28,771 nucleotides of DNA from an uncultured Bacilli bacterium. Lineage in GTDB: Bacteria > Bacillota_I > Bacilli_A > RF39 > UBA660. A model generated the notes under the pieces. It searched no databases. It was given only the letters and a program-made list of their open reading frames with translations, and had not been told where the DNA came from. Both the position numbers and the translations under genes were made by a program. Shown here in pieces: positions 5,788 to 25,329 of this stretch. The first letter of the stretch is position 1. Every line of letters begins with the position of its first letter. The stretch lies in contig CANQBY010000001.1 of NCBI GenBank assembly GCA_947589695.1, positions 1 to 28,771 of the forward strand, read 5' to 3'.

Positions 5788-7212
5788 CTATGAGACTTCG
5801 TATGGATTTGTCATATTTCCTGGACCTGCAGTATCAGGACTTTTTGTTTTGAACTTTGTACCAGCTTTGAGATTTATTACTGGGCGCACACCACGAGTGT
5901 CGCTCACGTCGCTGCGGCCGAGGGAGCCATCACTATACACACCGAACACGTAAGCATAACCGTCATCAAAGCCACGCGGAGACATTGTCCAATAATTTCG
6001 GCCTGTATATAAGTAATAACTATCATTAGGTTGTCCAGCTAATCCTCCGGCAAAAACTACTTCATCTGCTGTGATTAAGCCTACTGGTACCGGTAATTTG
6101 CCATTGCCTTGTCCAGCACTATCACTTGTAGTATATAAATCTCTTTTCTTATTTTTGCATGTAAATGTTGGTTCTTGAGTAGTGTCCCAATCTGTGCTAC
6201 TAGGATTTAAAAATCTATCATATGCTCCATATATTGTTGGGAAAGTACCATACCCTTGGTTTGTATAAATAATATTTCCATGATTTGAAGAAGCTTTCGA
6301 TCTATCTCCACAAAAACCTGTTGCTCCATCTATTTTATTTTTATACTCTTCATTTTTACCTATTTTATTATCATACCATTCTTTTATTGTATCTAATATA
6401 GTACTATTTGTCACACTATCTGACATCTCATTGTTATATGTAGTTGATGGAGATTTTTTTTCACCATCATACATATAGCCTACATACTTATTATCGTTAA
6501 AAGTATCATTAAATTGTACATTAGCGTCATCATTAATAGATGTACCTTTACCAGTTTTTTGAGCAGTATCACCAGAATAAATAAGTCTTATAGTACCATC
6601 ACCATTAATTCGAATAATTCGCCAATACATATCAGCAAACTTGACCCAGTTATTATCCACTGTGCCTCGATAATAATATGTTATTCCGTAATCGTCTGTT
6701 CCTTTAAATAATCCGCTATTACTATCAGCACAACTTCCACATGCTGTACTTGAAAAACTTTCTTTGCCTTCTCGAGCTTCCTCTGTACTCAATCCTAATG
6801 CTGCCAAAGTTTTTAATGTAGCATTGGTAAAATAAACATAACATTTTGTTCCTTTTTTAGTTATATCAATTCTTACCTTATCTCCTGTATATTCCATATT
6901 ATTTGTTATTCTTTCTTCTGTACTTCCAACTATACAATAACTCTTTTCATTATCTATTTCATAATTACCTTTGGGTATTTCTTCTATTAATACATCATTT
7001 TTACCTGTACTTTTATACATAGCAATAACATTTAAATCAGCACTTGTATAATTTATTGTTCCTTCGGCTAACTTTACACTATCAACTGTTTTATATTTAG
7101 CTTTTGCAAATAATAAATTACTTACTGCAAGAAGTGCTACTCCCATTGCTAAGCCATATAAAAACCATTTTCCTTTTTTACTATTACTAATATCTAGTTT
7201 TTCGAATTTCAT
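5788..7212 (-). CDS. Membrane-anchored surface protein with C-terminal CLec-like domain, putative DGR target, 474 aa
   Basis: N-terminal hydrophobic anchor; YYYRGTVDNNWVKF...WRIIRINGDG, GLITADEV and C-terminal YWTMSP...AYVFGV..DG....V..TRGVRPVINL, the pattern of DGR-target C-type-lectin-fold domains. Confidence 0.8.
   Translation of the reverse strand: MKFEKLDISNSKKGKWFLYGLAMGVALLAVSNLLFAKAKYKTVDSVKLAEGTINYTSADLNVIAMYKSTGKNDVLIEEIPKGNYEIDNEKSYCIVGSTEERITNNMEYTGDKVRIDITKKGTKCYVYFTNATLKTLAALGLSTEEAREGKESFSSTACGSCADSNSGLFKGTDDYGITYYYRGTVDNNWVKFADMYWRIIRINGDGTIRLIYSGDTAQKTGKGTSINDDANVQFNDTFNDNKYVGYMYDGEKKSPSTTYNNEMSDSVTNSTILDTIKEWYDNKIGKNEEYKNKIDGATGFCGDRSKASSNHGNIIYTNQGYGTFPTIYGAYDRFLNPSSTDWDTTQEPTFTCKNKKRDLYTTSDSAGQGNGKLPVPVGLITADEVVFAGGLAGQPNDSYYLYTGRNYWTMSPRGFDDGYAYVFGVYSDGSLGRSDVSDTRGVRPVINLKAGTKFKTKSPDTAGPGNMTNPYEVS
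5881..6003 (-). other. Putative DGR variable repeat (VR)
   Basis: 60 G/C in 100 nt at 5881-5980 (hand count) in an AT-rich gene; 31 consecutive codons are 27 NNY plus 4 GTG, none ending in A. Confidence 0.75.
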
Positions 7213-9140: not shown

Positions 9141-9955
9141 TATTCTTCACCTGCACTATCTTTGTTTTCAGCTTCATAGAAGACTTCGGGTCTTGGATTT
9201 AAAGCGTCAATTAATAACATCCGAAATTCATCTAAAGTTAGATTGTAATTTAATTCCCCATCAACAGCAATACTTAAACGACCATTTTCTTCCGAAACAA
9301 CTAAGGCGATGGCATCACTTTCTTCGGCAATACCTAAAGCAGCCCGGTGCCGAGTTCCTAAACGTTTGGAAATGGTATCACTCATACTAGTTTTAAAGAC
9401 AGCTCCAGCGACAGTAATTCGATCTCCTTGTAAAATTACCCCACCATCATGAAGAGGTCCATTAGGGAAAAAGATAGTCTCTAATAAATCACTGGATAAA
9501 TCAGCATAAACTTTGGTTGCAGGTTCAATATATTCTTGTAAAGATATTTCCCTTTCAATTACAATTAAGGCTCCAATCCTATTACGTTTAAAATATTCAA
9601 TAGATTTCATAATTTCATATACTACTTTTTCGCGTTCATCAATCGTTAATACTTTATGTCTTCCAAGTAGTTGAGTACGACCAATAGATTCTAAGACACT
9701 TCTAATTTCTGGTTGAAAAATAACAATAATAGCTAGAGGTCCCCATTCTAAACAGTATTGAAGGATTATACCTACAGTATATAAATTTAATAAATCACTT
9801 AATAATTTTATTAATAAAACTAAGATAACTCCTTTAAATATTAAAACCATTTTAATATTATTTTTAATATTTTTAAGGATGAAATAAAATACGAGCCAAA
9901 CAACACCAATATCGATTATTTTAGTGATGATTTCCCATATCATACTTAATGTCAT
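9140..9955 (-). CDS. cdaA: Diadenylate cyclase CdaA (DacA/YbbP)
   Basis: Three N-terminal TMs, IVIFQPEIR, GALIVIER, PLHDGGV (DGA-like) and GTRHRAA motifs. Confidence 0.95.
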   Translation of the reverse strand: MTLSMIWEIITKIIDIGVVWLVFYFILKNIKNNIKMVLIFKGVILVLLIKLLSDLLNLYTVGIILQYCLEWGPLAIIVIFQPEIRSVLESIGRTQLLGRHKVLTIDEREKVVYEIMKSIEYFKRNRIGALIVIEREISLQEYIEPATKVYADLSSDLLETIFFPNGPLHDGGVILQGDRITVAGAVFKTSMSDTISKRLGTRHRAALGIAEESDAIALVVSEENGRLSIAVDGELNYNLTLDEFRMLLIDALNPRPEVFYEAENKDSAGEE

Positions 9956-13109: not shown

Positions 13110-13137
13110 AAACCACCAATTAAGGTGGCTTTATTTT
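13110..13137. terminator. Bidirectional terminator between convergent genes
   Basis: AAACCACC-AATTAA-GGTGGCTTT flanked by A and T runs. Confidence 0.55.
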
Positions 13138-13931
13138 TTCTTTTTAGCATTGGTTTTCTTCTTGGCTGATTTTTTAGAGTGCTGAGATTTATTTGAAGAT
13201 TTAGATTTATTTTTATTTGTTTTTTTCTTTTTAGATTTTTTTGAAGACGGAGATTTAGAGTTGGAAGTTTTTGAAGTAGATTTTGGGGACTTTGTTTTAG
13301 CAGAAGGTTCTTTTTGCTTAGGAGTTTCAAGATTGGTTTTAATAACTTTTTTAGAAGCTGCTAAGTTTTCTTCTTTTACCAAAGACGCGGCAGAATCCAT
13401 TTTATCTTCCGAAACGGTTTCAGTTACTTTTTTGGTTACTTCAATCATAAATAATTTGCGGAATAAAGGATTTTTAGCAAAATCAATTTTCTTTTTAGTA
13501 ATAGTTGTCTTCGCATTATCTTTTATTTTAACTTCTTTGGTGGTTTTAGCTTTCGAAGTTTTGACTTTTTTAGGTTCTTGGGTTTCTTTTTCTTTCGTTT
13601 CTTTAGGCGAAACTGATTCGGATTTTTCTTGGGCTTTTGGGTTCTTGTCTTTTTTCAAAAATAAATTTACGAATTTGGCCCAAAGCGATTTTTTAGGAAC
13701 CTTAGGTTCTTCTTTAGCAGTTTCTTTAATAATATCCGTTTCTAAAGTAACAGAAATTAATGGTTCTTCAATAGTTTTAGATAATTCCTTTTTAGAAAAT
13801 AATTTTTTAAATAACTTGGAAAGACCCATGTAAATTATGGTAATTATGATACATAAAAGAGTTATAAAATAAGCACTAATGATAGCAATAAAAAATATAT
13901 CAATAGTATCAAATTTATCCATAATTATCAC
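13131..13931 (-). CDS. Membrane-anchored Lys/Ser-rich low-complexity protein
   Basis: N-terminal hydrophobic helix; very basic tail (SSKKSKKKKTNKNKSK...KKKTNAKKKK). Confidence 0.75.
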   Translation of the reverse strand: MIIMDKFDTIDIFFIAIISAYFITLLCIIITIIYMGLSKLFKKLFSKKELSKTIEEPLISVTLETDIIKETAKEEPKVPKKSLWAKFVNLFLKKDKNPKAQEKSESVSPKETKEKETQEPKKVKTSKAKTTKEVKIKDNAKTTITKKKIDFAKNPLFRKLFMIEVTKKVTETVSEDKMDSAASLVKEENLAASKKVIKTNLETPKQKEPSAKTKSPKSTSKTSNSKSPSSKKSKKKKTNKNKSKSSNKSQHSKKSAKKKTNAKKKK

Positions 13932-16823: not shown

Positions 16824-16898
16824 GCAGGTATAGTACAGTGGTTAGTATGCGACCTTGCCAAGGTTGAGACGGCAGTTCGAATCTGCTTACTTGCTCCA
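16824..16898 (+). tRNA. tRNA-Gly (GCC)
   Basis: GCAGGTA/TACTTGC acceptor stem, CGACC-TTGCCAA-GGTTG anticodon arm, GGCAG-TTCGAAT-CTGCT T arm, encoded CCA. Confidence 0.95.
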
Positions 16899-16910
16899 AA
16901 TTGATTTATC

Positions 16911-16931
16911 TCCCGTTTTTCGGGGTTTTTT
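16911..16931 (+). terminator. Terminator after tRNA-Gly
   Basis: TCCCG-TTTTT-CGGGG followed by a T run. Confidence 0.65.
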
Positions 16932-17039
16932 ATTTATATTTTTGTTTTACGTAGCAATTACGTAGCATTTAGGAATACGTCATACAAAGCCAAAGACATA
17001 AATGATAATATACACAGAATTGATAAGTTTTTATTAGTA
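16916..17039 (+). repeat. Left copy of the ~115-125 bp direct repeat bounding the island
   Basis: Shares TTTATTTATATTTTTGTTTT...TAGCATTTAGGAA..CGTCATACAAAGCCAAAGACATAAA.GATAATATACACAGAATTGAT.AGTTTTTATTA with 25106-25218; contains TACGTAGCA twice at an 11-bp period. Confidence 0.9.
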
Positions 17040-17097
17040 TTTTTCTTATAAAATAAAGATTAAGCCTTATAAAATCTTCAAATGATGAATTCTAATA

Positions 17098-17129
17098 GGA
17101 ATTGAACCAGCGACACAAGGATTTTCAGT
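17098..17129 (-). pseudogene. tRNA-Phe(GAA) 3'-half fragment (att-site relic)
   Basis: Minus strand ACTGAAAATCCTTGTGTCGCTGGTTCAATTCC: anticodon loop GAA, variable loop and T loop; the 5' half and acceptor end are absent. Confidence 0.7.
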
Positions 17130-17269
17130 TATAGTTATGATAAATTAAATAGGTTTAAATAAGTTTAATATTTTTCTTAAATTCCTTTAAATTAAAGGGA
17201 TTTTTAACTATAAGTTTAATTATAACTAATTTTTAGATTTATTTAAATTTAATTTAATATTATCATTTT

Positions 17270-17352: not shown

Positions 17353-18567
17353 TTATATTAATAATTCATCCAGAATAAAAAAATCATAACCACTATTTTC
17401 TAATTTATCATATTTAATAATTTTTTCAGCAAATTCATCGCTTTCTTCAAAATTACACATTTTTGCTAAATAAAAAAATATACTTTTTAAACTTACGTTC
17501 ATGAAAAGATGTTTGTTAATAATTCCCATTCCTACAGGTATCCATTTTTTTGTTCTAGTATCTTCTAAATATATATATTTCTTTTTATTATTGGTTATAA
17601 TATTTAAATGATTTTTTTCCATATTTTTTTGTGGTCTTTTACTTAAATGGATTTTAAAATATGTAAACTCTGTAATAAATATATATGCATAGAAAAAACT
17701 GAAACCTATGTAAACATTTTTTTCATAAATATCTTCCAATATTTCATTATCTATTAATGGTTTTTCTTCTGTCAAAAATAATGGAGAATCTATGTTGTGT
17801 TTTAATGGAAAAGCAAGAAATGGCCATTTAACATCTTTCTTCATCATTAAAAAACATAAAGAATTTGGAATATAAAGTGTTTTATAATCTTTGTTTTTAA
17901 AAATTTTATATACATCATTGAAATTATAAAACTTAGTATTCATATTAATGTATTTTACATTTAAGCTTGTTTTATCTAATATGATATTATTAATTGGTGC
18001 AGCTGTATTATTGATTTTTCCTTTATAACTTTCAATTCTTTTTTGTTGATTATTTTTTCTTCTTTTTTGTTTTAATTCGCTTTCACTTAATTCATTATCA
18101 TTTAAATTATTTATTCTATCTACAATTTTTCCTTCACTAAAATCATAAAGTTCAATTTCATAATTATTTGTTATAATTATAGCATCAGCTCTTCTATTAG
18201 AAGATGGTAATAAATCTAATAGCAAAAAGGCTTTAAATTCTTCATTTTCAACTTTAGCAACAGCAATTTTATAATCTCTTTTTAAATTTTTTAGTTCTTC
18301 TTTTGTTAACAATCCCTTATGTTCATTTCCAACTAAAAGCCTAAAAGCAGCACCATCTCCATTTAAAAAACATAATATGAAGAAATTTGCAATTTTATTA
18401 GAGTTAAAATACTTTTCATTTTCACTCATAAATTCAAAATTTTCTATATATTCAAATTGCATATCTTGTAATAACTTAAATGTAAGAACTTGTGCAGTTT
18501 TTGAAATACTATCAGTTGGTATTAAAATATGGTTATTTCCGCTTAATTTAAAAATCAACTTATTCAT
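17353..18567 (-). CDS. Hypothetical protein, 404 aa, last gene of the island operon
   Basis: Long ORF with GAGG RBS, 7 bp after the upstream stop; no family recognised. Confidence 0.75.
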   Translation of the reverse strand: MNKLIFKLSGNNHILIPTDSISKTAQVLTFKLLQDMQFEYIENFEFMSENEKYFNSNKIANFFILCFLNGDGAAFRLLVGNEHKGLLTKEELKNLKRDYKIAVAKVENEEFKAFLLLDLLPSSNRRADAIIITNNYEIELYDFSEGKIVDRINNLNDNELSESELKQKRRKNNQQKRIESYKGKINNTAAPINNIILDKTSLNVKYINMNTKFYNFNDVYKIFKNKDYKTLYIPNSLCFLMMKKDVKWPFLAFPLKHNIDSPLFLTEEKPLIDNEILEDIYEKNVYIGFSFFYAYIFITEFTYFKIHLSKRPQKNMEKNHLNIITNNKKKYIYLEDTRTKKWIPVGMGIINKHLFMNVSLKSIFFYLAKMCNFEESDEFAEKIIKYDKLENSGYDFFILDELLI

Positions 18568-18574
18568 AATTACC

Positions 18575-19174
18575 TCAATTTTTTATATATTTATTTTTAA
18601 AATATGCTTTACCTAATTGCCAAATATATCTGTCTATATCTTTTAAATTAAAGCTATCTATATTGTAAAACTTTTTAAATTCTATTAAAATAGATTTAAA
18701 TTTTTGATAATCTTTTAAATCGGTTTTGGTAAAGTTTGCAAAATTATCTTTTTCTTTAAAATAAAGTAAAATTTTCTCAACATAACTATCATATATAGGA
18801 AAATTTGTTGGATCATGGTGGCTACAATATTTTGTTGAAAAAGAATAAAAGTTTTTTGTTGTTCCATTAATGGAAACATTTGCAATGTCATTTACTAATG
18901 TTTCATCTTTATTTTTTAATCTATTATCAATTTTTAAATTTAAAATATGCTTTGCTACTGGAAATATAGCAAATATATTTGTACTATAAAAATCATTTAG
19001 TGCACTAGCTTTAATTAAAATATCTTCGATATTTGTGTTGTTTGGATAAGTATTTAAAAATAATTTATTTAAGGCTTTTTCTTGAAGCACATAATTTTCT
19101 TTTGAATCCCAAAGTTTTAAATATTTTTCAACTTCTTCTGCAGAAGGCTTTGGTATATTTATTTTATTTTTCAT
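18575..19174 (-). CDS. Putative HhH-superfamily DNA glycosylase-like protein, 199 aa
   Basis: Start at ATG 19174 (TAATG overlap); LNDFYSTNI, YSFSTKYCSHH.P..FPIYDSYV and C-terminal KDIDRYIWQLGK motifs. Fold is inferred. Confidence 0.55.
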   Translation of the reverse strand: MKNKINIPKPSAEEVEKYLKLWDSKENYVLQEKALNKLFLNTYPNNTNIEDILIKASALNDFYSTNIFAIFPVAKHILNLKIDNRLKNKDETLVNDIANVSINGTTKNFYSFSTKYCSHHDPTNFPIYDSYVEKILLYFKEKDNFANFTKTDLKDYQKFKSILIEFKKFYNIDSFNLKDIDRYIWQLGKAYFKNKYIKN

Positions 19175-19611
19175 TATTCTAAAAAATCCCATCTATTTAA
19201 ATATTTATCGTCTTTATCATTAAAAACTCTTATGTCATTGTCATTATGTTTTTGACCTTTTAATCCTAAAGTATTTAACCAATTACTATGATCTTGTTTT
19301 ATAGTTTCAGCAACAATTTTACTTGGTATTATATGATATTCGGGTACTTCTAAATCATTTAATGATACCATAAAATAAATTATATTATCTTCAATTAATG
19401 TTTCATTTTTCTTTCCCAACGTCCATTGTTTCATTTTTAATCTTGTTGTTTTAACTTGTATAGCATATTGCTTAAAAGTAGTTCTATTTATAGCTAATAT
19501 ATCAAAATCTTTTGTATTAGACATTGGTACTGCTGCCGTAAACCCATGTCTTTCAAGTTCTCCTGCAACAAAATATTCTCCTGCATTTCCAACACTTATA
19601 TTATTATTCAT
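19174..19611 (-). CDS. PD-(D/E)XK restriction-endonuclease-fold protein, 145 aa
   Basis: Start at ATG 19611 after GAGG; GNAGEYFVAGEL...N...FDILA...IQVKT catalytic pattern. Confidence 0.8.
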   Translation of the reverse strand: MNNNISVGNAGEYFVAGELERHGFTAAVPMSNTKDFDILAINRTTFKQYAIQVKTTRLKMKQWTLGKKNETLIEDNIIYFMVSLNDLEVPEYHIIPSKIVAETIKQDHSNWLNTLGLKGQKHNDNDIRVFNDKDDKYLNRWDFLE

Positions 19612-19618
19612 TTTTACC

Positions 19619-21331
19619 TCACTTTCTGCATTTTGGACAACCTGTTCCATAATTGCGATTGTATATGGTAGCTTGCCATTCATATCCACATTTTGAACAT
19701 TTCCACCATACCTTTTTTCCACTTCCACAAGTAAAATCTTTTGGAGTTAATGGTGCATTTTTTTCTTTATTCCATTCTTTAACTAAATCTGGCCTTGTTT
19801 CATTTAGACTAGCTCCTTTATGCAAAGCATTATTTCTATTCATTTCTCCAATATGTTTGTGCATACATTCTTGACAATAGAGTGTTTTAGATCTAATTCT
19901 AGAACATATAGGCGCTATAAAAGATTTTTGACAATTAGAGCATTTCCACCATACTTTTTTTCTGCTTCTAAAATATATTTTTTCAGGACTTAAACCATTA
20001 TTTTTTTCATAATCCCAAGTTTTAGCTATTTTGGGAAATTTTGATTTTAGATTATTAGTTTCATTAATTATTTTACCTGAACAATAGGGACAACCAGTTC
20101 CAGTTACTCTATGATTTATAGTTGCTTGCCATTCGCTATGACATTTAGAACATTTCCACCATACTTTTTTATTTGAACCAATGAGAAAATTTTCAGGTTT
20201 TAATTCATTATTTTTTTCATCGTTCCATTCTTTTAATAATTCTGGATGATATATTGAAAAATTATTTTGTTTAACCGATTTTATATATTGGCTATATATA
20301 TTTGAGGCATCTTTTACAATATCTATATTTTTAATTTTTTTATTTAAAATTTCCTGTATGTGGAATAAAATAGTTTCAATATATTTATAATCTTTATCAA
20401 TAATACAATATATAATTTTTTTGCTTTTATTAAATTCATTTACATTAGATTCTTTTATGTGATAAAGGGTTATTCCATTATTACTTATAATTTTATTTTT
20501 AATTTTCTCTTTTTCTATACTTTTACTATTATCATGATAATATGAGCCATCATATTCAAAACCAATTTTATATTCTGGTAAATAAATGTCTATTTCTTGA
20601 TTATCTATTTTTTCTCTATTCTTAACGCAGGCAATGGCTGATAAATAATAGCATATAGCTTGTTCTGGAAATGATGTTCCGTTTTCCGAATAACAATGAG
20701 AGCAACCAGTTCCGGCTGTTCTATGGCTAATACTAGCTTGCCAGCTGTGTCCCAATTCGCATTTCCACCATACTTTTTTATTTGATTTTGCCATAAAATT
20801 TTCTGGTTTTAAATTTCCATTTTTTTCTTTATCCCATTCTTTTAATAACTCTGGATTAGTTGTTCTTAAATCATTTTCTCCAATAATGGGTTTTTGTTTT
20901 GTACAATATATACAATTTGAACCACTTGTTCTGTCATTAATTGTTGCTTGCCAACTATGCCCTTTATTACATATCCACCATACTTTTTTGCCACTTCCAC
21001 AAGTAACATCTTTTGGGGTTAATGGTGCATTTTTCTTTTCATCCCATTCAGCAACTAAATCTGGTCTATTTTCAAATAAACTTCCATTTTTTTCAATTAT
21101 TGTTTTAATACGATGGCTACTTATTTTTTTTAAAGAACATTTTGGACAACCAGTTCCTTTAAAACGGTTTTTGGGAGTGGCTTGCCATTCATTCCCACAT
21201 TTAACACATTTCCACCATATTTTTTTAGAACTTCCTATTGTTATTTTGTTTAAATCAAAATTTTCATTTTTTTTATAATTATACTCTTGCATTAAAATAT
21301 TGTTATTTATTAAGTATTTAATTTGTTTCAT
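19619..21331 (-). CDS. Multi-zinc-ribbon (DUF4379/treble-clef-like) protein with central Vsr/DUF559-like endonuclease domain, 570 aa
   Basis: Six repeats of KKVWWKC..(C/G)..WQA.I..R..G..CxxC; central SFPEQAI...EIDIYLPEYKIGFEYDGSYYH. Confidence 0.8.
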   Translation of the reverse strand: MKQIKYLINNNILMQEYNYKKNENFDLNKITIGSSKKIWWKCVKCGNEWQATPKNRFKGTGCPKCSLKKISSHRIKTIIEKNGSLFENRPDLVAEWDEKKNAPLTPKDVTCGSGKKVWWICNKGHSWQATINDRTSGSNCIYCTKQKPIIGENDLRTTNPELLKEWDKEKNGNLKPENFMAKSNKKVWWKCELGHSWQASISHRTAGTGCSHCYSENGTSFPEQAICYYLSAIACVKNREKIDNQEIDIYLPEYKIGFEYDGSYYHDNSKSIEKEKIKNKIISNNGITLYHIKESNVNEFNKSKKIIYCIIDKDYKYIETILFHIQEILNKKIKNIDIVKDASNIYSQYIKSVKQNNFSIYHPELLKEWNDEKNNELKPENFLIGSNKKVWWKCSKCHSEWQATINHRVTGTGCPYCSGKIINETNNLKSKFPKIAKTWDYEKNNGLSPEKIYFRSRKKVWWKCSNCQKSFIAPICSRIRSKTLYCQECMHKHIGEMNRNNALHKGASLNETRPDLVKEWNKEKNAPLTPKDFTCGSGKKVWWKCSKCGYEWQATIYNRNYGTGCPKCRK

Positions 21332-21677
21332 CTATATCACTTCTATTCTAAAAATTTGCTTCGTTATTAAAAATTGTGTTTCTATATTTATTATATCATG
21401 TTGATTATAGATAGTAAATTAACGAGGAGCAATTCATTGATTTATTTTAAAAAGGTAACATATTTTTCATTAGGTAAATAAAGGTTTTCTTTAAAAAAAG
21501 TAATACAAAATGTGCTAAATTTGTCAGTTTTTCGCAAGTGCGAAAAGATTTTTAGCACTATTTTTTTGCCAAAAATCCTTATAAATAAAGGCTTTTCATA
21601 AAAAATGGTGGCAACCCATATCCCGTTTAGAATTTAGAGGGTGTTTTTTTATTAATTTTTTGTTGTTTTTTTAGTGA

Positions 21678-22034
21678 TTAATGTTTGTGTTCAGTTACAC
21701 ATTCAAAATACATATCTTTAACGTCTTTATTAATTTTTCCCTGTAAGAAATCATAATGACTATCAAGTAATTTATTTATTAGTTCTTGATTAGTCATTTT
21801 TGATTTATCGGCATTTAAGTTAATGTGATTATTTTCTAGTAAACAAGTTAAAACAAAACTTGTTATTTCTATATTACTTAATTTTCTTATATAAATATTT
21901 TCAAGTTCTCTTTTTTCTACTTCTGATATTATTAATCCTTTACCTTTACTTTTTATTAATACACCACCATTATTTTTATTATTAAATACTACTAATTCCT
22001 CATTTTCTTTAAGTTTTAAATATTTTCTTTGCAT
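21678..22034 (-). CDS. Hypothetical protein, 118 aa
   Basis: GAGGAAG RBS and a consensus promoter upstream; divergent from the HTH gene. Confidence 0.7.
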   Translation of the reverse strand: MQRKYLKLKENEELVVFNNKNNGGVLIKSKGKGLIISEVEKRELENIYIRKLSNIEITSFVLTCLLENNHINLNADKSKMTNQELINKLLDSHYDFLQGKINKDVKDMYFECVTEHKH

Positions 22035-22058
22035 TAAGCTTCCTCTTTTCTATTGTTA

Positions 22059-22087
22059 ATTATACTGGCTATATAACCAATAGTCAA
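22059..22087 (-). promoter_or_regulatory. sigma-A promoter with a palindromic operator in the spacer
   Basis: TTGACT (22087-22082), 17 nt, TATAAT (22064-22059); TGGCTATATAACCA 22066-22079 is quasi-palindromic. Confidence 0.7.
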
Positions 22088-22137
22088 GTAGCATTTAAAA
22101 TTGATATGATTTTACTAACGAGAGAGGAAGTAAAATT

Positions 22138-22365
22138 ATGATTAAAGTTAATATTGAAAGTGGAACTTATTTATTTAAACTTGATGACTTATTAAATTCA
22201 AAAAATATTAGTATAAATAAATTAATGAGAGATACTAATACTGATTTTAAAGTTATTAAAAGAATTATGAGTGGTGAACTTACTAGAATAGATATAATTG
22301 TTTTAGCAAGATTATGTGATTATTTAAATTGCAAAATTACTGATATAGTAGATTATCAAAAATAA
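22138..22365 (+). CDS. Cro/C1-type HTH regulator (HTH_26-like), 75 aa
   Basis: FKLDDLLNSKNISINKLMRDT...RIDIIVLARLCDYLNCKITDIVDY. Confidence 0.85.
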   Translation: MIKVNIESGTYLFKLDDLLNSKNISINKLMRDTNTDFKVIKRIMSGELTRIDIIVLARLCDYLNCKITDIVDYQK

Positions 22366-23057: not shown

Positions 23058-24944
23058 TTAATTTTCAAATAAATTTTCCTTAATTTTATTTTTCATTTTT
23101 TTAAATCTATTATCAAGAAAATTTAAATATGCTGATTTAAACTGTTCTTCATTAAGTTTTTCATCTAACCAAGCAAGGTCGCTTTTAATAGTAAAAGTGT
23201 ATCTATTTTCAATTTCTTCAATGCTTTTTATTTTGGCTAAATAATCACTATCTTGGTAAACAGTATTATCCTTTTTAGTTCGATTATCATATTCAGGTAA
23301 CAAACACAAGTTAGCAATTGAACTTATTGGTAGTCTAAATTCTTCGCTATAACTACTAATTTTAGATTTCATTAATGCTTTTGGAGCAAGATGTTCAATA
23401 TCATAATTAGAGTTATCATTTTGATCTGAAGCTTTAAATATATATGCATAAATTAAATTTAGCAAAATTTTTTCTGGCTCTTTAGGCATAGCAACTTGTT
23501 TTCTTTCATTTCTTTCACTATTCATTGAAGTGTAATAATTGTCCAATACTTTCTCAAAATCATTCCAACTAATTTCTCTATTATAATAATAATTTTCAAT
23601 AATGATATTATCTAATTTCTTATCTCCAGAGCCTTTCCATTTTTGACCTAATATATCCATTGCATATATTTTTAAAATATTTTTATCAAATATTTCTTTC
23701 ATATCTGCCCATTTCTTATTATTCGTTAAAAAATTAATAGTTAAATTTAAAACATCACCTTTTTCATTAGATTGAAAATCAGCATATTTATTTATAAAAA
23801 TAGTTGCAATTATTGATATAATTTGCATCTCTGTATGTAATGTTTTAATTCTTGAGTCGCTACGAGTGTTACCTTTAAATTTTGTTCCAACAGCTAATTT
23901 TTTGTCAACATAATCTATTGCTTCTATAATTTTTGAAAGAAATAATTCTACATTTTCTAAACCAATTAATTCTTTCAATTTAATATTCAGATTTTTTAAA
24001 TTAGAGCTTCTTTGTACTAAACAAGCATTTATGAGATTAAATCCAATACTTTCTACTTTTGTTTTTTCTTTTTCTTCGTAAGTGAATAAATACGGATATT
24101 TTTTACTAATCATTTTTCCAAAACCAAATACTAATTCAAAAATTGTAACTTCCCTATTTTTCATAAATTCAGTTGAATTATAATCATCTAGATCCATATT
24201 TTCATCAAGCATATTTTCATATCTATCTCTATTAATGCTTAAAATTTCATCAAATTTTTTATCTTTTATTTTAACTATATCTTGCCAAGCAGCAGAATAT
24301 ATCTGTTGTTTTGTCAATTTAGCCCCTTGTGAATTTATTCTTTCAAAAATTTCTGGAAGTAAACTTTCATCTCCTTCATATATTAATGCCGGAATAGATA
24401 CATCAGAAATCTGTTCGCAAATATTTTGAAATTCATTAAACATCGTTTTTATTAAATCTTTTATTTCTTTTTCTGTTTCTTTAGCAGTAGGCCATTCATT
24501 TATGATTTCGGCGACTAAATCTCCGTATTGCATTCTTTGAATATCCTTCATCGTTTTATGATTTTTTGTTACCCATTGCTTTATTATTTCAATAAGCTTT
24601 AACTTAATCGCATTTTTATCTCCTGTAACATTTAATTTATTTAATATCTTATTTATAATCTCTTCATCTAAATTTTCATCTGTAAAAAAGGCAGCCGGAT
24701 TTTTTACATATTCAATTATTGTAGTACTTCTTTGTAAGCCATCTATAATTTGCATATTATTATTCTTTTCATAAAGCAATATAGACCCAAAAGGATAACC
24801 TTTATACATTGAATCAATAAGTTGATCTTTTTGTTGTTTATTCCAAACTACACCTCTTTGATATTTTGGTACTGTAATTTTACCATTTTTTATGTCATTG
24901 CTTAATTTTTCCACACTTAAATTATCCATTTTCCATGTTCCCAT
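23058..24944 (-). CDS. DUF262-DUF1524 (GmrSD-type, fused) modification-dependent restriction protein, 628 aa
   Basis: VPKYQRGVVW, IIDGLQR, IFERINSQGAKL (DUF262); YDIEHLAPK...SIANLCLL..YDN (DUF1524/HNH); AGGAGG RBS. Confidence 0.88.
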   Translation of the reverse strand: MGTWKMDNLSVEKLSNDIKNGKITVPKYQRGVVWNKQQKDQLIDSMYKGYPFGSILLYEKNNNMQIIDGLQRSTTIIEYVKNPAAFFTDENLDEEIINKILNKLNVTGDKNAIKLKLIEIIKQWVTKNHKTMKDIQRMQYGDLVAEIINEWPTAKETEKEIKDLIKTMFNEFQNICEQISDVSIPALIYEGDESLLPEIFERINSQGAKLTKQQIYSAAWQDIVKIKDKKFDEILSINRDRYENMLDENMDLDDYNSTEFMKNREVTIFELVFGFGKMISKKYPYLFTYEEKEKTKVESIGFNLINACLVQRSSNLKNLNIKLKELIGLENVELFLSKIIEAIDYVDKKLAVGTKFKGNTRSDSRIKTLHTEMQIISIIATIFINKYADFQSNEKGDVLNLTINFLTNNKKWADMKEIFDKNILKIYAMDILGQKWKGSGDKKLDNIIIENYYYNREISWNDFEKVLDNYYTSMNSERNERKQVAMPKEPEKILLNLIYAYIFKASDQNDNSNYDIEHLAPKALMKSKISSYSEEFRLPISSIANLCLLPEYDNRTKKDNTVYQDSDYLAKIKSIEEIENRYTFTIKSDLAWLDEKLNEEQFKSAYLNFLDNRFKKMKNKIKENLFEN

Positions 24945-25105: not shown

Positions 25106-25218
25106 TTTTTCGGGTTTTTTATTTATATTTTTGTTTTTACATAGCATTTAGGAAGGCGTCATACAAAGCCAAAGACATAAACGATAATATACACAGAATT
25201 GATTAGTTTTTATTAATA
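25106..25218 (+). repeat. Right copy of the direct repeat bounding the island
   Basis: Aligns to 16916-17039 with a few substitutions and one fewer 11-bp TACGTAGCAAT unit. Confidence 0.9.
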
Positions 25219-25329
25219 CTTTTAAAACAAAAACTATTAAGATTATTTTATAATTGTCTAAATAAAAGATTATCAATTTCATGTGATAATCTTACTTATA
25301 TTAATTGTAATTTGGATAATTAATCATCT

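Follow-up and report, generated by a model that had tools for sequence, protein, structure and literature searches.

The gene array and its boundaries

Here we analyze four adjacent genes, named A, B, C and D, which are encoded on a 28.8-kb contig of an uncultured gut Bacilli bacterium (the window, as we call this whole stretch of DNA); the contig comes from a 1.13-Mb metagenome-assembled genome (MAG) that is 71% complete. An earlier note on this DNA had proposed the four genes as a candidate undescribed anti-phage operon, in which a zinc-ribbon nuclease, a PD-(D/E)XK nuclease, a glycosylase and a protein of no recognized family would together sense and cut hypermodified phage DNA. The gene coordinates (Table 1) bear out its description of the locus: the array consists of four co-oriented minus-strand genes, in the order A, B, C and D, with intergenic gaps of 7, -1 and 7 bp. 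The protein labels hold as well, A being a zinc-ribbon nuclease, B a PD-(D/E)XK protein, C a protein with a glycosylase fold and D a protein without a family, where the Pfam matches of the A core and of B are sub-threshold. A GmrSD gene does lie nearby (GmrSD_N, E 2.4e-29) and, in line with the note, no methyltransferase domain was found in any open reading frame (ORF) scanned.

At the junction of B and C the sequence TAATG is found, in which the ATG of C overlaps the TAA of B by one base. An alternative start of C is the upstream ATG at 19192; the TAATG start is the better supported of the two, because the same junction recurs in L014, a locus of a close relative that is described below, and the homologues of C align from residue 1-5. 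The promoter-like site upstream of A agrees with the consensus in 10 of 12 positions, has an extended -10 and is located inside the stretch that is conserved with L014. The four genes are probably co-transcribed.

Table 1. Positions of the genes and other features of the window that are discussed in the text.
Feature	Position	Strand	Remarks
Gene A	19619..21331	-	570 aa
Gene B	19174..19611	-	145 aa; GAGG Shine-Dalgarno 7 nt upstream
Gene C	18575..19174	-	199 aa
Gene D	17353..18567	-	404 aa; GAGG Shine-Dalgarno precedes start
Promoter-like site upstream of A	21390..21418	-	TTTACT, 17 nt, TG-TATAAT; consensus match only
tRNA-Gly(GCC)	16824..16898	+	Conserved anchor of variable locus
Left direct-repeat copy	16916..17044		Starts 18 nt past tRNA-Gly; islet boundary
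Right direct-repeat copy	25106..25223		Islet boundary
Conserved ~165-nt element end	17098..17262	-	Downstream of D; tRNA-Phe 3'-half relic at 17098-17129
GmrSD-type gene	23058..24944	-	DUF262 plus His-Me finger, type IV restriction; 628 aa
orf118 and helix-turn-helix gene	21678..22365		orf118 minus strand, no family; 75-aa Cro/C1-type helix-turn-helix protein plus strand

The four genes in other genomes

The complete A-B-C-D set was found in none of about 190 loci fetched, and gene-neighbourhood conservation, by which the earlier note had proposed to check its operon, speaks against it. Outside the window, A-B-C was seen only in one metagenome group of a close relative (L014-16), where the L014 proteins are identical to those of the window in 78% (A), 95% (B) and 84% (C) of their amino acids. 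The nucleotide homology to L014 covers positions 18583-21426 of the window at 83% identity and ends at the stop codon of C; where the window holds D, L014 holds an att-like element. D is placed outside the A-B-C block because the homology stops at this stop codon. A 373-aa gene next to C in L014 was considered as a possible D and is unrelated to it.

When each gene is followed alone, the other three are mostly missing. Among 126 loci that hold C (metagenomic and viral-contig), an A-like neighbour was seen in none and a B neighbour in two, and most of these loci have no conserved partner. The genomes that hold B gave 25 loci with varying neighbours, in which B is solitary in 22, C is present in one and an A-like gene in two. 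A 158-aa gene that takes the B position in L007 was tried as a B homologue and is also unrelated. The nearest orthologues of A (63-68% identical) are found without B or C, in a conjugative element, between serine recombinases, or alone. For D, homologues that are 37-62% identical were read in seven other contexts, with A, B or C in none of them.

Based on this distribution, we suggest that the array is made of independently mobile, single-gene DNA-targeting cargo that accreted in an islet and is not one four-component system; the probability that we give to this reading is roughly 0.68. The idea of one undescribed four-gene operon system is not supported, since D is never with A, B or C elsewhere, the orthologues of A are solitary and B and C are mostly so. 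The earlier note had added that the genes could be independent accretions, and it is this reservation that is favored by the non-co-occurrence and by the block that ends at the stop codon of C.

Gene C is a putative Dag-type glycosylase

C is a member of the Pfam family PF27257 (HI_0787_N), to which precomputed Pfam assignments place C and all of its 120 listed homologues, and its Atlas clusters are 95-100% PF27257. At 50% identity the family falls into more than 2,000 clusters; its type protein, Haemophilus influenzae HI_0787, aligns with C at a template-modelling (TM) score of 0.75 with 48% identity over the aligned part. PF27257 carries no functional annotation and no functional study of HI_0787 was found in the literature; the link to Dag1 that is made below is our own.

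The AlphaFold2 (AF2) model of C, built from a deep alignment, has a predicted local distance difference test score (pLDDT) of 96.3. The model was compared with 48,161 PDB representatives (VIA-wide), and ranks 1-13 are all HhH-GPD glycosylases (Ogg, MagIII, EndoIII, MutY, AlkA and AGOG), with the matches spanning residues 5-196. The best match is the Tm1821 Ogg (3n0u), with a Z-score of 7.9 and a root-mean-square deviation of 4.2 over 165 aligned residues. In Foldseek, 3knt, MutY, EndoIII and Qng1 rank near the top, mixed with unrelated proteins, and every one of these matches is weak (E >= 0.1); when PDB sequences were searched with a profile of C, the matches were at chance level only. Because the Z-scores are modest, this evidence speaks at the level of the fold. 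K115 and D129 do not vary in an alignment of 54 sequences, in which D181 and W185 are conserved in at least 90%; the spacing of these four residues (14/52/4) is kept in 99 of 150 representatives of the family.

Dag proteins are single-gene glycosylases of the HhH superfamily that are found on integrons and other mobile AT-rich DNA and defend against phages whose DNA carries 7-deazaguanine-type bases (Getz et al., bioRxiv 10.1101/2025.10.29.685425). In vitro, Dag1 (VP1840, GPY41_RS14515) breaks down 7-deazaguanine-type DNA, with the behavior of a bifunctional enzyme; K118, D132, D184 and W188 are predicted to form its active site, mutagenesis showed K118, D184 and W188 to be essential, and Dag1 queries recover several hundred homologues in Bacillota (bioRxiv 10.1101/2025.10.29.685425). 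The spacing of K115, D129, D181 and W185 in C equals that of Dag1, as counted from the residue numbers printed in that paper and not from an alignment. MjOgg, SsOgg and AGOG are structural neighbors of both Dag1 and C, and C is also nearest to Tm1821. C has about 200 aa and an HhH-superfamily fold, as in the Dag family, neither Dag1 nor C can be linked to repair glycosylases by sequence, and like the Dag family C is a stand-alone gene on mobile AT-rich DNA. There are also differences: the host of Dag1 is a Vibrio and its gene an integron cassette, whereas C is found in a small-genome gut Bacilli MAG in a tRNA-linked islet, and C, unlike Dag1, is translationally coupled to a PD-(D/E)XK gene. 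Based on fold and motif, C probably belongs to the Dag1 family itself, and we hold it to be quite likely that C is a Dag-type defense glycosylase in the general sense.

The earlier note had found no system that matches these genes. This stands as far as PADLOC goes, since in PADLOC-DB v2 (2023, which predates the Dag work) A, B, C and D had no match at E <= 0.1, and neither PADLOC nor NCBIfam nor Pfam assigned any of the four proteins to a system or gave it a named match; it no longer stands for C, which resembles the named Dag glycosylases.

C is a rare gene, present in 6 of 399 genomes of the class. It had no tblastn match in 72,556 plasmids and 50,697 deposited phage genomes, and 46 copies were found on IMG/VR 'viral' contigs, mostly beside serine recombinases. 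The usual neighbors are helix-turn-helix (HTH) genes, serine-recombinase triplets, integrases, DUF6508, NUDIX and a 340-aa unknown. About half of the C family consists of ~320-aa fusions to putative DNA-binding N-domains, which are a weak integrase-SAM-like domain, DUF7662 with a winged helix, or DUF7669. In a Rosetta-stone test, a B-like domain was found in 0 of 121 N-terminal extensions of the fused proteins (B-profile E >= 0.05).

Two recurrent arrangements were seen around C-type genes. In one family of integrase-bearing elements the gene comes directly after a ~235-aa XRE-type HTH gene (L010-L013, 5257-6582; L007, 3288-6618; L027, 7211-9031), and the slot between the two sometimes holds B, or a 251-aa protein with a 406-aa Macro-domain protein. 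The XRE-type HTH gene and C may be a regulator-effector pair, or this may be a fixed cargo slot. In L068-L151 (for example L140, 606-2171) a ~330-aa fused form of C has a fixed neighborhood, in the order three serine-recombinase genes, a 225-aa unknown, DUF6508 (163 aa), the glycosylase and a 335-360-aa unknown; in another subgroup of the fused form a 200-aa protein and a NUDIX hydrolase follow.

Genes B, A and D

In B, residues E12, D35/D37 and Q52-V-K54 are invariant across 20-26 homologues and form a candidate E ... D ... (E/Q)xK motif. The matches of the protein to PDDEXK_5 (E 2.5e-4) and Mrr_cat (E 0.05) fall short of the cut-off, and that to phrog_29029 has an E of 3.5e-12; a single-sequence search of PDB sequences gave chance-level matches only.

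A is built of three DUF4379 treble-clef zinc ribbons, a central nuclease core (approximately residues 215-345) and three more ribbons, and Pfam finds DUF4379 (PF14311) in six stretches with an E of 1.9e-122. The core matches the Vsr-like REase_MTES_1575 with an E of 1.5e-4 and 22 bits, below the cut-off of 38. By eye, D248, E259-x-D261 and H266 are candidate PD-(D/E)XK residues, and the same D..E-x-D-G..H pattern is also present in a 36% identical paralogue. A belongs to a family of more than 7,500 clusters and matches PHROG 559/681/3339, which are labelled 'endonuclease / homing endonuclease', and it has phage homologues; no functional study of DUF4379 was found in the literature. Phage and mobile-element endonucleases of the DUF4379-repeat/Vsr-like kind (MTES_1575, DUF559-type) have, like A, arrays of treble-clef ribbons around a Vsr-like core. 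Enzymes of this kind are often annotated as homing, whereas A shows no homing context (intron, intein or gene interruption). In another locus (L187, 3273-6728) an A orthologue that is 63% identical is preceded by a 561-aa protein with weak RNase_T-like and DUF4379 matches; this pair lies between two serine recombinases, and such a pairing of the zinc-ribbon nuclease is unlike that of the window.

D is the rarest of the four, with 25 homologues among 5.8 billion proteins, and it was not found among 60 relatives. It has no Pfam, NCBIfam, PHROG or PADLOC family, and Pfam searches with the two halves of D gave nothing either. The AF2 model has a pLDDT of 91.3. Against the PDB, Foldseek gave only E > 0.8 and the VIA-wide comparison Z <= 4.3, with helical matches only; the look-alikes in AFDB clusters and the Atlas are uncharacterized proteins only (Atlas features <= 0.87). 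The family has 53 invariant positions. A conserved block at residues 113-146 (LLLD..SNRRADAII..ELYDFSEG) forms a strand-loop-strand region rich in acidic residues after SNRRAD (D118, D128, D142, with E145 conserved in at least 90%), and a basic helix at 162-181 carries Q167, R170, K171, Q174 and R177. The acidic block and the basic helix could be a metal or nucleic-acid site, to which the fold matches lend no support. Homologues of D adjoin an MmeI restriction-modification gene and TnpV, lie between a serine recombinase and a relaxase, belong to a polysaccharide locus or the end of a prophage-like region, or are neighbors of AbiEii or of a recombinase and a HipA-like gene.

The islet

The window has a G+C content of ~25% and carries the sporulation genes CotJB/CotJC and a CotO-like gene. 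At the array the local G+C is 0.21, compared with about 0.27-0.30 in the core genes. The order D-C-B-A-orf118-HTH-GmrSD is bracketed by the two copies of an imperfect direct repeat, which share 86% identity across 129 nt and differ by an 11-nt indel; this gives an islet of ~8.1 kb without an integrase. The defense-type island that had been claimed for this locus is confirmed, and its outline is sharpened by the direct repeats and by the conserved tRNA-Gly anchor. The LtaS/tRNA-Gly junction is kept in 10 congeners and nothing past the tRNA is syntenic; instead, an HD-AAA gene, Sua5 with LeuRS, a recombinase with Mob, or a DUF1016 nuclease is found there. The direct repeat was looked for in ten congeners and was not found.

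The ~165-nt element downstream of D has a single copy in the window; L014 has two (6819-6995 and 9369-9545), to which the window copy is 72% identical. Its tRNA-Phe relic, which runs from the anticodon loop to the T-loop, is identical in 31 of 32 nt to the intact tRNA-Phe of the genome (contig C157), and both L014 copies end in a full tRNA 3' end with CCA. Judged by these letters, we read the element as the att relic of an integrative element that would have targeted tRNA-Phe, and the picture suggests that small islands accreted in tandem at tRNA-Phe-type att sites. The two L014 copies flank an unrelated two-gene cassette (229 aa and 373 aa). The intact tRNA-Phe on contig C157 was also considered as the far end of the islet and was rejected, as there is no integrase there. 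An Rfam scan gave tRNA as the only match. From the repeats, the tRNA-Phe relic and the unrelated DNA of the congeners, it follows that the islet which holds the array has decayed, lacks an integrase and occupies a hypervariable site.

The same islet carries the GmrSD-type gene, which is separated from A by 1.7 kb that hold orf118 and the HTH gene and stands outside the four-gene array. Besides GmrSD_N (DUF262), it matches the PADLOC DUF262 models NsnA / PD-T4-2 / HEC-05; at its C-terminal a His-Me-type motif is indicated by a weak HNH_4 match (E 0.03) and by a D-I-E-H motif seen by eye. Enzymes of the GmrSD type cut modified DNA without a methyltransferase.

Two side observations were made. 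Beside CotJB/CotJC, the window has at 13131-13931 (minus strand) a 266-aa ORF that begins with a membrane segment at its N-terminus and has a low-complexity tail extremely rich in lysine and serine; it may encode a spore-surface or coat protein. In the congener G017 (L176, 6565-9387) a 941-aa leucyl-tRNA synthetase ORF has a NUDIX match at residues 396-501 beside its editing domain, which would be, if real, an unusual insertion.

Proposed roles and alternative explanations

From the gene structure, the domain and fold assignments, the motif conservation, the distribution and the neighborhoods that were observed, possible activities, substrates and defense roles can be proposed. C, the most readily interpreted of the four, would remove a modified purine (of the 7-deazaguanine type) from invading phage DNA and would then nick the backbone, so that the phage genome would be fragmented. 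In this reaction Lys115 would attack as the nucleophile, acid catalysis would come from Asp129 and Asp181, and the base, once flipped out, would stack against Trp185. B would be a small PD-(D/E)XK nuclease that sometimes travels with C and may process damaged DNA or act alone, and A would be a stand-alone endonuclease, whose Vsr-like core would cut the DNA and whose six flanking zinc ribbons would read it. D would be a separate single-gene cargo that was inserted downstream of C. As separate enzymes, C, B, A and GmrSD may equip the islet with several layers of specificity against DNA that is modified or foreign. In this form, the earlier idea that modified DNA is targeted without a methyltransferase fits C and GmrSD; as a description of one four-gene sensing and cutting system it is not supported.

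Several observations weigh against accretion of single genes, or against the role given to C. The genes are packed as in an operon, and their starts are Shine-Dalgarno-led or overlapping. A-B-C, together with ~95 bp upstream, is conserved as one block in L014. Distant A-like genes adjoin C in L007-9 and L027 and lie near B in L021, and B and C are adjacent in five contexts, in both orders (the window, L014, L027, L056 and L051). The structural Z-scores of C are modest, at most 7.9, and its probable membership in the Dag1 family was drawn from fold and motif. Concerning the packing, operon-like spacing in AT-rich islets can arise by accretion of single genes, so that tight spacing by itself is no evidence for a system.

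The spacing between B and C is 0-18 nt in the window, L014, L027 and L056, and the order is reversed (C-B) in L051, where the copy of B is only 50% identical. Since both are rare cargo genes, this adjacency looks non-random, and the two may be functionally linked. One option is that B and C truly belong together as a module of two genes, in which C would be the glycosylase or base sensor and B its nuclease; A and D would then be unrelated neighbors. Such a module would be a split analogue of the END nucleases, in which a type IIS-like nuclease is fused to an inactive EndoIII and which show that a nuclease with an HhH domain works as a defense against hypermodified phages (PMC12191111). Common to both are an HhH-GPD-type domain, a PD-(D/E)XK nuclease, the lack of a methyltransferase and a predicted target in hypermodified phage DNA. 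Yet the END proteins are fused, whereas B and C are separate small genes, most members of these families are unpaired and no fused B-C form was found among the 121 extended proteins of the C family. The HhH domain that serves END as a sensor is inactive, whereas C and its family keep the invariant catalytic Lys and Asp.

That a glycosylase can have an operon partner is seen in Brig3-BapA, where the partner widens the range of the glycosylase (bioRxiv 10.64898/2026.02.25.707755). Brig1, a protein of the UDG (uracil-DNA glycosylase) superfamily, acts on modified cytosines (PMC11078745). Both systems defend by excision of modified bases, as is proposed for C; in contrast to C, Brig1 and Brig3 act on modified cytosines, and the partner of Brig3 is a glucose hydrolase and not a nuclease as B. 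Dag-type glycosylases, on the other hand, protect alone (bioRxiv 10.1101/2025.10.29.685425), B is present in only 2 of the 126 C loci and C in only 1 of the 25 B genome loci, and the B-C copies with the same order may descend from a single pairing event. A prediction of the B-C complex, run without controls, gave a score of 0.00 and was counted for neither side. Together these points make a dedicated B-C module unlikely, although it is the best of the alternatives. In a stronger and somewhat more doubtful version, B-C would be a two-component defense, in which an active glycosylase marks modified phage DNA and a dedicated nuclease makes lethal breaks, as a split counterpart of END with an active sensor; in this lineage A could be a recruited third enzyme and, separately, D could be a new single-gene defense or abortive-infection protein.

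Another hypothesis is that A, B and C are a cooperative trio under one promoter, in which C would make abasic sites or nicks and the nucleases would turn them into double-strand breaks, with D as a later insertion. The conservation of the block and of the promoter-like region in L014 agrees with it, as do the A-like genes beside C in L007-9 and L027, but the latter are distant paralogues in different positions (36% identical in L007 and 25% in L027), the divergence is uneven across the block, the closest orthologues of A come without B and C, and no A-like gene was seen in the 126 C loci. The A family is so large that A-like genes could plausibly come to share cargo slots by chance, and we regard the trio as improbable. 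Least probable is that the genes are not immune at all, with A as a selfish homing-type endonuclease, C as a glycosylase for repair or element maintenance and B and D serving the mobile element (for example in recombination, replication or transfer): A does match phage families annotated as homing or HNH endonucleases, and C and D often lie beside recombinases, relaxases and HTH regulators on integrative elements, but A does not interrupt another gene here, C lacks the conservation of a housekeeping gene and fits the mobile AT-rich profile of defense glycosylases, the islet also carries GmrSD, and the neighbors of D include MmeI, AbiEii and HipA-like genes.

Implications

The reading of the array as accreted single-gene cargo leaves two leads that can be followed. 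One is the recurrent pairing of a glycosylase with a small PD-(D/E)XK protein, and the other is D, a rare protein of ~400 aa with a confident fold and no solved relative, which is always found among defense or mobility genes. For the protein family, the link of motif and fold to the Dag glycosylases gives a probable function to HI_0787_N, a large and so far uncharacterized Pfam family. If this link is true, the Dag type of defense would also occur in gut Bacilli with small genomes and on integrative elements with serine-recombinase genes.

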